From: a virus
Lineage: Duplodnaviria > Heunggongvirae > Uroviricota > Caudoviricetes
DNA: 64,000 nt
Virus record (IMG/VR): IMGVR_UViG_2880389630_000005
Direction: 5' to 3' (one strand)
Part shown: piece by piece, positions 46,963 through 49,044 of the stretch
Layout: each line of letters starts with the position of its first letter
Numbering within the stretch: position 1 is the stretch's first letter
Position numbers and translations under genes: made by a program
Notes under the pieces: generated by a model
Told to the model about the DNA's origin: nothing
Databases searched by the model: none
Seen by the model: the letters and a program-made list of their open reading frames with translations, nothing else

Positions 46963-49044
46963 TTACTTATTAACCCAACCTGTAGCATTTGTGTTGCTTT
47001 CCTTTATATAAAGTACTGTATTTCCACCTCCATCAGAACGAGTGTAAATAGAACCAACTGGTGCTCCAACTCCGCTAGATGTTGGGTTGCCTTCTTGCCC
47101 AAATATCACAAGTGAGCTTTTATCTGTAGCTTGATTATTCTGTGTGGCTGATGTTCCAAATGAAACATTCCCTATAAATGACACGCTCTTACAGCTTGAT
47201 GTAGCAAATATACCAACTGATGGTTTATTATTTGCAACGCCATCACGAATTTGATTTGAACTAACAATTACATTTTCTGCACCAGAGTCAATTCGTATGC
47301 CATTATGGTTATTATCTGCGGTAGAAACCCCAACTATAATGTTTGATTGAATAGTAACATTTGAATATTTACCATTAATATGAATCCCATGCAGGGAAAT
47401 ATTTCTAAAGATGTTGCTAGAAATTACAACATCATGCGAAAAACCAGACCCTATAAATTCTTCTGCATTAGTTTCAGAAATCCATAAAGAACTTGATGTT
47501 CCTGAATCGTATTCATTATTAGAGATGATTGATTTGTTAATAAAATCACCTTTGAAAAAACCGATTCCGCCTCTTGCTGTGTTTCCAGTGACAGTTAGTC
47601 CTGAAACCCATCTTGCGTCTACTGCATATGATTGAGACTCTGTAATAAACATGGAATTGTTGGATATTACGATATCTTCATGAAATGCATCTGATGTATC
47701 TGTATATGGATATGTAGGTGCAGCCAGAAGAATCGGGGATCTAACGCCTTCAAAATAATTGCCAACAATGCGCCCCCTCCTTGCCCCCTGTGGTTTTGAT
47801 GATGATGGGAATGGGGTTACATGAACTCCTCGCGCGGTACTGTTATAGAAAGAGCATCCGCTAACCACCCAATCATACCAGTTGAAAACCCTTACCCCGG
47901 CAAAGAGCATTCCATCGAACCTGCAGTTTATGACCCTTATATTTTTGTCCTGATTCCCATATGAATTAGCATGGTTCCCAACCCCCACCCCCCACGCCCC
48001 AAACCCAGTGGTGGTATTTTGTGGATTTGAACCAAAATAACAGTTATCAACAAGAACATTGATGTTTGGGTAATAATCGCCAAGAGATTCAATCCCCGGA
48101 TCTAACTGGATCGCTTCTGAATAATTTCGGTTGGAAAGTGGTTTGAAGCCAAGAAACTTACAGTCTCTTATAATCACCCCTTGCCCGTCAGCAATATCTA
48201 CAGCATGAAAATCGACTACATCAAGAAATGTTACTCCAACAATAGAAAGATTTCTTGGTGAGGAGGCTGCAATGATGTCAAAAGGATCTGTAGGGTGGTC
48301 TTGTCCTCCTCCATCTAGTATTCCGCCTGTTATTTTAATGTTAGTGCCAGTATTAGGGCTTATTCTCAGCATGACGTCATTAGAAAAATTACGTTTAATG
48401 GTTACGCCATCAGTCATCTTTAGGTGAGTATTTGATTTTATTTGCAACTCAGAAAGCAAAGTATATATGCCTGGTAGTGAAAACTGTAGTGTACCTCCTC
48501 CAATGCTATATATTGCATCTAGCGCAAATTGCAGAGCTACTTTATTGTCAGCATTCGATGGATGAGCACCGAAGTCAAGAACATCAATGATTTGTTGGTT
48601 CTTTTGGTGTTGAGTTTGATTTGCTGCTCCGGGGAATGGTTGTTTCACCGACACTAATTCATCCCCATCACCATCATCAAAGGATGCCAACCTCTTCTGA
48701 AACTGATCAGGGTCATACTTCAGCACATTAGGAAAATAAAACTGCTGCGCACCATATGCATCATAAACAGCCATAGAATGGCCCTGTACAGTAACGAATT
48801 TGGCAATCTGTCCGTTATATACAGGGTAACCAGCAGCGTTAATGATGATTGGTTGCGAAACAGGAACGTGAGAACCATCTTCGTTCTCTACATAAACTTG
48901 AATCTGGTTTTCAGGATTTACCGGGTCAGTGTCAATTTTACCGATATAAATTTTGCCATTGGCTACGGCTTTAAAAGAACGCGCCATAGTGAAGAGTTGC
49001 GAAGGCATACTCACTACAACATTGGCATTTATCGAATCTGTCAT
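46963..49044 (-). CDS. Tailspike protein: P22-type head-binding N-terminal domain, divergent beta-helix receptor-binding domain
   Basis: 693 aa; first ~110 aa match the P22/HK620 tailspike N-terminus; remainder Asn/Gly/Ser-rich. Confidence 0.9.

Follow-up and report, generated by a model that had tools for sequence, protein, structure and literature searches.

A P22-like prophage tailspike of Escherichia coli ST131 carries an exchangeable receptor-binding module that is associated with the K2 capsule

The tailspike gene and its head-binding domain

The stretch of DNA analysed here (the window; 64,000 nucleotides of the IMG/VR record IMGVR_UViG_2880389630_000005) is an E. coli chromosome of the sequence type 131 (ST131) type. 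The subject of this report is the tailspike gene at the end of a P22-like (Lederbergvirus-type) prophage of about 39 kb that lies between sbcB and dacD. Its product joins a head-binding domain of the P22 type to a receptor-binding half that co-occurs with one capsule type of its hosts irrespective of their O-antigen type. The gene and its parts are as follows.

46963..49044, minus strand: tailspike coding sequence, 693 aa plus stop codon (list of open reading frames, RefSeq, PHROG tail spike families)
48700..49044, minus strand: head-binding (particle-attachment) domain, residues 1-115 (Pfam PF09008; identity to Sf6 and P22)
48715..48755, minus strand: module-exchange boundary, gene nt ~290-330 (residues ~97-110), just before the LKYDPDQ motif (identity profile)
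47125..48597, minus strand: right-handed parallel beta-helix receptor-binding (putative depolymerase) domain including its N-terminal cap, residues ~150-640
47893..48207, minus strand: putative active-centre signature, H280-A-V-D283, C295-K-F-L-G-F, R306-N-Y-S-E310-A-I-Q313-L-D315, G356-N-H358, G-V-R384
46966..47124, minus strand: small C-terminal beta domain, residues ~641-693, with the motif GSIYxRxDGG...LYIKE...GW (model strands, family consensus)
46755..46962, minus strand: 208 nt that follow the stop codon and move together with the receptor-binding module (end of homology against strains 317, 755 and 4993)

An earlier note on this DNA, made from the sequence alone, had named the open reading frame at 46963-49044 as a mosaic tailspike gene, and its extent was borne out exactly. 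The frame starts with ATG, preceded by a GGAG motif 8-11 nt upstream. Its product is 100% identical to RefSeq WP_050011445.1, 'phage tailspike protein', of strain 4433 (O25b:H4-ST131), and the identical gene is present in strain 4433 and in 16 further complete genomes. The PHROG tail spike families also match the product, while no NCBIfam family was assigned to it and a simple scan found no intrinsic terminator 3' of the gene. With a GC content of 37-42% the gene lies below the window as a whole (51%). A mosaic P22-type tailspike gene is textbook biology and, as the RefSeq entry shows, is already annotated as such.

The product has the marks of a P22-like tailspike, namely the Pfam domain Head_binding (PF09008, residues 4-114, E 2.1e-65), a position at the end of the late region beside the immI region and a predicted beta-helix body. 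Among solved structures the N-terminus is closest to Sf6 gp14 (7sg7) with 92.2% identity over 115 aa, and it is 86-94% identical in P22-like phages of E. coli such as Kapi1, IME10 and CUS-3. Identity to P22 gp9 is 74.8% over 111 aa, and to the HK620 tailspike 68.6% over residues 1-186. Thus the earlier description of an almost exact match to the P22 and HK620 N-terminus is true of Sf6 and the E. coli relatives, yet it is overstated for P22 and probably also for HK620. The 5' module that encodes this domain is common, being present in about 1,133 of 5,426 complete E. coli genomes.

The remainder of the protein had been called unrelated to the P22 domain and rich in Asn, Gly and Ser. Indeed, no significant sequence match to the body of the P22 tailspike was found past residue ~116. 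However, weak similarity in the helix caps extends to residue 187 for Sf6 and to residue 298 for HK620; therefore 'unrelated' is slightly too strong. The composition was confirmed: the share of Asn, Gly and Ser is 30.6% in residues 116-693 and 20% in residues 1-115. Sf6 gp14, P22 gp9 and HK620 gp9 thus have the head-binding domain, the position after immI and a central right-handed beta-helix in common with the present spike, whereas their helix bodies lack significant sequence similarity to it.

Predicted fold of the receptor-binding half

A right-handed beta-helix had been expected, and structure prediction agreed with this for the monomer. An AlphaFold2 model, built as a monomer from an alignment of 27 homologues, had a mean predicted local distance difference test score (pLDDT) of 82 and mostly exceeded 90 from residue ~155 on. 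It shows the repeated short strands typical of a beta-helix and, after these, a small C-terminal beta domain with strands at 644-650, 666-669, 678-681 and 690-692. The consensus of this C-terminal domain is kept across the family of proteins related to PfbA of Streptococcus pneumoniae (see below). Foldseek matched the model to the tailspikes of Sf6, HK620 and P22, to PfbA and to AlgE4. Independently of the model, Pfam Beta_helix (PF13229) matched residues 458-599 with E 8e-11. A Peptidase_S74 chaperone domain was not found in the tailspike with Pfam.

Exchange of the receptor-binding module

The receptor-binding module is a horizontally exchanged cassette that is joined to differing head-binding modules at residue ~100. 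Across four prophage contexts, the stretch that begins at residue ~100 and ends 208 nt past the stop codon is conserved with 97-100% DNA identity, while the 5' part of the gene (the first ~290-330 nt) is 85-94% identical between contexts. In comparison with the alleles found in strains 755, 4993 and 317, the 5' cluster of mismatches ends with nt 288, 290 and 327. The CUS-3 record annotates a 'boundary sequence' at the same junction. The 3' module was found in 23 of the 5,426 genomes, always with at least 99.3% nt identity. These carriers represent four contexts at three insertion sites (sbcB/dacD, argW and ybhB/bioA).

Context 1: sbcB/dacD in ST131-type genomes, the context of the window itself
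Context 2: tRNA-Arg (argW) in ST131 strain 4993, and in MB1159 as judged from its near-identical gene and position
Context 3: argW in strain 755, with a different immI region
Context 4: ybhB/bioA in the canine strain 317

The module occurs as two alleles, and their distribution is incongruent with backbone, insertion site and host. Conversely, strain KE40 has a closely related immI backbone with a different tailspike of 896 aa. Modular exchange of receptor-binding proteins is well documented (PMC10408124).

Two side observations concern the flanks of the module. At argW the order in strains 755 and 4993 is tRNA-Arg, intS, tailspike (L014:5463-9079 and L015:5463-9079), so that the integrase adjoins the tailspike and the shared 208-nt downstream segment reaches into the 3' end of intS. 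Such an order points to another arrangement of att and int, or to tandem prophage remnants at argW. The 'AVS' genomes of ST131 from wastewater (AVS0753, NZ_CP124332.1, about 874532-875791) have a gap of ~1.26 kb between tailspike and ant; because the window lacks it, it is probably an insertion sequence (IS) in the AVS genomes.

O-antigen or K2 capsule as receptor

The earlier note regarded the receptor-binding half as an O-antigen-specific enzyme that defines the serotype specificity of the prophage. Here this would mean an endoglycosidase for O25b that acts like those of P22, Sf6 and HK620. Most characterised P22-like tailspikes do cleave O-antigen (PMC10408124), most carriers of the module are O25b:H4-ST131, and the predicted fold resembles the endoglycosidases of HK620 and Sf6. 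Yet among the lysogens the module does not track one O-serogroup. Strain 4433 has an O25-type rfb cluster, whereas strain 317 has wzx and wzy of the O6 type with a module that is 99.3% nt-identical. Strain 755 has a third rfb cluster, in which the flippase gene is annotated as incomplete and adjoins IS1 (L022:20267-22656). Furthermore, of the 461 genomes with an O25-type rfb cluster (again out of 5,426) only about 21 carry the module, and all of these are K2.

The K type gave a uniform picture. All 23 carriers of the module have the K2 group 2 capsule locus, irrespective of O type. Region 2 of this kps locus encodes a CDP-glycerol glycerophosphotransferase, an XcbB/CpsF protein and a hypothetical protein, and is of the type found in CFT073 and in records labelled O2:K2:H1 and O6:K2:H1. 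It is present in 140 of the 5,426 genomes; compared with 461 O25-type genomes this means that at most 30% of the latter are K2. The association of module and K2 had a Fisher p of 4.5e-38, uncorrected, or of ~4e-7 when the four contexts are counted as independent observations. ST131 is diverse in K type (PMC13171606). K2 itself is a teichoic-acid-like polymer of galactosyl-glycerol-phosphate according to Jann et al. 1980, as cited in PMC13171606. Given the spread of O types and the K2 locus in every carrier, the claim of O-antigen specificity was not supported, and it is more likely the K type than the O-serotype to which the spike is matched. The receptor-binding half thus tracks K2 and not an O-antigen, and with such a distribution it probably degrades capsule instead of O-antigen.

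The annotation of strain 4433 (O25b:H4-ST131) gives one gene of the O25 cluster as frameshifted (L003:21903-22965). With an O-antigen gene annotated as frameshifted in this strain and another as incomplete in strain 755, O-antigen may be scarce or absent in at least some of the lysogens, and this would be in keeping with a capsule receptor.

If the K2 association were mere hitch-hiking, K2 would mark lineages only, and the spike would recognise another surface structure of extraintestinal pathogenic E. coli (ExPEC). Candidates are the R1-type core of lipopolysaccharide, enterobacterial common antigen, colanic acid or an outer-membrane protein. All carriers checked do resemble ExPEC/B2-type genomes with similar islands, they provide just about four independent contexts, and capsule loci and prophages move in the same ecological pool. 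On the other hand, B2/ExPEC genomes other than K2 are far commoner (compare the 461 O25-type with the 140 K2 genomes), and none of them has the module. We give hitch-hiking a small but real chance; the lytic relatives described next bear on it as well.

Lytic relatives and CUS-3

The closest relatives of the receptor-binding half are the second tailspikes of lytic Vectrevirus phages (vKMB47, 101101UKE1, LL11, K-01, EEc2 and others), which are 46-49% identical from residue 114 or 117 to residue 693. They have the whole signature and the C-terminal domain in common with the present spike, and differ in their N-terminal anchor (PF18668, TSP1/Gp66-type, in P0004 and P0007) and in belonging to lytic phages with two spikes each. 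Vectrevirus is the genus of the capsule-specific phages K1-5 and K1E, so this kinship speaks against an O-antigen enzyme.

A pair of these phages differs mainly in the second spike. Phage vKMB47 has a K5 lyase and a homologue with 48% identity to the present spike, forms halos and plates on CFT073 (O6:K2), whereas vKMB14, which combines the same K5 lyase with another second spike, fails to plate on this strain (PMC11162368). The difference in plating argues against hitch-hiking. The near-identical phage 101101UKE1 was isolated on an O25b strain (PMC11162368, PMC8614997). No specificity determined by experiment is given for these second spikes in the literature searched.

Because O types vary among the carriers, all 23 carriers are K2 and the lytic relatives agree, we consider the K2 capsule the most likely receptor, and on these sequence comparisons a rather likely one.

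A precedent for such a spike is CUS-3, a P22-like prophage of the E. coli K1 strain RS218, whose head-binding domain is 89.8% identical to the present one over residues 1-127. In the CUS-3 spike a P22-type head-binding domain is fused to a capsule-specific module that is related to the spikes of lytic K1 phages. The tRNA-Arg (argW) site used by the prophages of strains 755 and 4993 is also the site of CUS-3. The modules themselves differ. That of CUS-3 is an endosialidase, a beta-propeller with a C-terminal chaperone domain, which cleaves polysialic acid; the present module is a PfbA-like beta-helix with a probable specificity for K2 and without a Peptidase_S74 chaperone domain. By analogy, the present spike would work most like that of CUS-3, as a P22-like spike with a capsule-specific module borrowed from lytic capsule phages.

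The PfbA-like family and the putative active centre

At E <= 1e-10 the family to which the receptor-binding domain belongs comprises 397 representative clusters. Most of them have variable N-terminal anchors, and the Pfam matches in the family are to Beta_helix, Pectate_lyase_3 and NosD. Within 78 diverse homologues H280, G356 and H358 are invariant, and F297, G299, E310 and Q313 are at least 90% conserved. Conserved Asn residues form a ladder that presumably has a structural role. The core of the helix contains the full family signature, H...C-x-F-x-G...E-A-I-Q-L-D...G-x-H...V-R.

The same signature is carried by PfbA (PDB 3zpp, 4mr0; phmmer E 2e-14), a cell-wall-anchored bacterial surface protein which is described as an adhesin for fibronectin and plasmin(ogen). 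It aligns with H293, Q296, E328, Q331, E333, H377 and R405 of PfbA, so that PfbA has Q and E where the present spike has D283 and D315. The structural report on PfbA names H293, Q296, Q331, E333, H377 and R405, though not E328, as a conserved putative active centre and places it in an electropositive groove of ~50 A suited to an acidic polymer (PMC3718772). The signature also occurs in Paenibacillus and Virgibacillus proteins and in the 'tail spike' (gp098) of the SPO1-like Bacillus subtilis phage Adastra (29% identity over 516 aa, E 6e-42). Like Adastra gp098, the gp12 appendage of phi29 serves on Gram-positive hosts, yet it has the fold alone in common with the present spike (13% identity) and possesses an autocleaved chaperone domain. 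By analogy, the electropositive groove of PfbA and the Bacillus-phage relatives fit a polyol-phosphate polymer as substrate, which is again at odds with hitch-hiking.

The catalytic residues of the O-antigen endoglycosidases (E359/D392/D395 in P22, D339/E372 in HK620 and E366/D399 in Sf6) could not be aligned by sequence with the present spike. The conserved residues of its family are His, His, Glu and Gln, in contrast to the acidic residues of those enzymes. Together with the O-type distribution and the Vectrevirus kinship, this leaves an O25b-specific endoglycosidase very improbable.

A PfbA-like, adhesin-type spike would bind K2 or another glycan without catalysis, and the capsule would be crossed by other means. 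PfbA showed neither lyase nor hydrolase activity on the substrates tested (PMC3718772), and no known catalytic dyad of glycoside hydrolase family 28 or of polysaccharide lyases can be assigned in the present spike. However, teichoic acids were not among the PfbA substrates mentioned in the text consulted (PMC3718772), and plaques of vKMB47 are surrounded by halos (PMC11162368). Moreover, although the homologues come from unrelated hosts, all of them have H280 and H358 and nearly all have E310 and Q313; because residues that bind normally vary with the glycan, this conservation argues for chemistry over mere binding. We regard a purely adhesive spike as improbable. The conserved putative active centre supports a glycan-degrading activity without proving it, and the mechanism class (hydrolase, lyase or phosphodiesterase) is not assignable from sequence.

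Proposed mode of action

Taken together, we favor the view that the gene encodes a P22-like prophage tailspike whose beta-helix groove binds and cleaves K2, which we hold to be moderately likely as a whole. By analogy with Sf6 and P22, residues 1-115 would dock the spike onto the virion tail and the spike would presumably be a homotrimer. In the groove of the beta-helix (residues ~150-640) the polyanionic K2 chain is most likely bound and cleaved, and by this cleavage the virion would bore its way through the capsule and reach the outer membrane. Judging from the equivalents in the PfbA crystal structure, the groove should carry H280, H358, E310, Q313, D315 and R384. The two histidines and E310 would be at the reaction centre, where either a glycoside is hydrolysed or a phosphodiester is cleaved. 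The trimer, the role of K2 as receptor, and the catalysis with its chemistry are our inferences.

Several points weigh against a K2-cleaving spike. About 19 of the 23 carriers belong to one ST131 sublineage with one prophage, so that the whole set amounts to about four independent observations rather than 23. The kps locus lies outside the window, whose K type is taken from genomes that are 100% identical over the gene. The lytic relatives are just 46-49% identical and two-spiked, and their hosts include an enterotoxigenic E. coli strain (LL11) as well as, in one record, Klebsiella aerogenes. PfbA, the only relative with a solved structure, is described as an adhesin, and enzymatic activity on glycosaminoglycans or pectins was not found for it (PMC3718772). 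Finally, the model is that of a monomer, and its N-terminal 150 residues are poorly modelled.

K2 is among the commonest capsule types of ExPEC and contributes to the serum resistance of CFT073. In the literature searched, which covered the ST131/O25b tailspike, the capsule spikes of Vectrevirus, K2 depolymerases and K2-specific coliphages, neither a phage enzyme directed at the K2 capsule of E. coli nor any other characterised K2 enzyme is described. A list of the K types targeted by depolymerases is given without K2, and dependence on K2 is reported only for the BASEL phages Bas04 and Bas06 (PMC12488582). A K2 depolymerase could find use as a typing reagent, as an anti-virulence enzyme or as a module for engineered phages against K2 strains of ST131 and ST73.

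More tentatively, the PfbA-like family, with its two invariant histidines plus Glu and Gln in an electropositive groove, may be an unrecognised class of depolymerases for polyol-phosphate (teichoic-acid-type) polymers. Such a class, possible though doubtful, would comprise the spikes of SPO1-like Bacillus phages acting on wall teichoic acid, PfbA, and the present spike with its Vectrevirus relatives acting on K2. In that case no depolymerase with specificity for the K2 capsule would precede the present spike, which would be applicable to K2 ExPEC of types such as ST131 and ST73, and its reaction could be phosphodiester cleavage instead of glycoside hydrolysis. The link of the present spike to PfbA and to the Bacillus-phage spikes gives a testable idea on the ligand or activity of PfbA. 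This link and the proposed K2 specificity are the sole elements that a specialist might follow. As a general caution, O-antigen should not be taken for granted as the target of a prophage tailspike when the E. coli host is encapsulated.

The prophage and its neighbourhood

The order of the prophage genes is terminase, portal, scaffold, P22-type capsid, gp4, gp10, tail and ejection proteins, a moron, mnt/arc/ant and the tailspike; the integrase is at the opposite end, beside sbcB. Around the tailspike gene the following features were found.

46397..46426: attR core, 30-nt repeat at the junction of prophage and chromosome on the dacD side
49217..49236, minus strand: terminator-like hairpin with an 8 bp stem and a T-run, between ant and the tailspike gene (consensus scan)
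49254..50943: immI region upstream of the tailspike gene
49254-50186, minus strand: ant (Pfam P22_AR_N and P22_AR_C; RefSeq)
50219-50443, minus strand: small open reading frame of 74 aa
50440-50661, minus strand: arc (Pfam Arc; RefSeq)
50689-50943, plus strand: mnt (Pfam Repressor_Mnt; RefSeq)

We infer the terminator role of the hairpin by analogy with the immI region of P22.

The insertion site was defined with strain 755, in which the site between sbcB and dacD is empty. This empty site matches the window up to 46426 and also matches the sbcB-int side of strain 4433, and the two matches overlap by 30 nt. The 30-nt core is thus duplicated at both ends of the prophage, the attL side being at L003:43585-43614 in strain 4433. 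The attB site lies within the first ~50 nt of the coding sequence of sbcB (exonuclease I). Still, sbcB remains annotated as intact, with 1,425 nt beside the prophage against 1,428 nt at the empty site, because phage DNA gives it a replacement 5' end. The original 5' fragment of sbcB and its upstream region are left beside dacD.

Between the tailspike gene and attR there is only a pseudogene of a HumD/UmuD-like translesion-polymerase protein (46513-46764, minus strand; RefSeq) with an internal stop and a missing N-terminus. No gtr or oac genes for type conversion were found in this interval, in contrast to P22 and Sf6, where genes for O-antigen conversion occupy the corresponding position.

A moron of three genes (50993-52801, plus strand) lies between mnt and the ejection-protein genes. 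Its products are a protein of 239 aa without a family match, an overlapping PIN-domain (VapC-like) protein of 182 aa and a hypothetical protein of 140 aa. None of the three genes had a PADLOC or NCBIfam match above the cut-off; they may be cargo for a toxin-antitoxin system or for superinfection exclusion.

Outside the prophage, a genomic island is found upstream of yeeA, sbmC and dacD at 26963-43000 of the window, corresponding to L001:1-16000. It contains a cluster encoding a dynamin-family GTPase, an RdcB-family protein and a patatin-like phospholipase, together with an ISEc12 insertion and a CP4-44-like remnant of the cbtA/cbeA toxin-antitoxin system.

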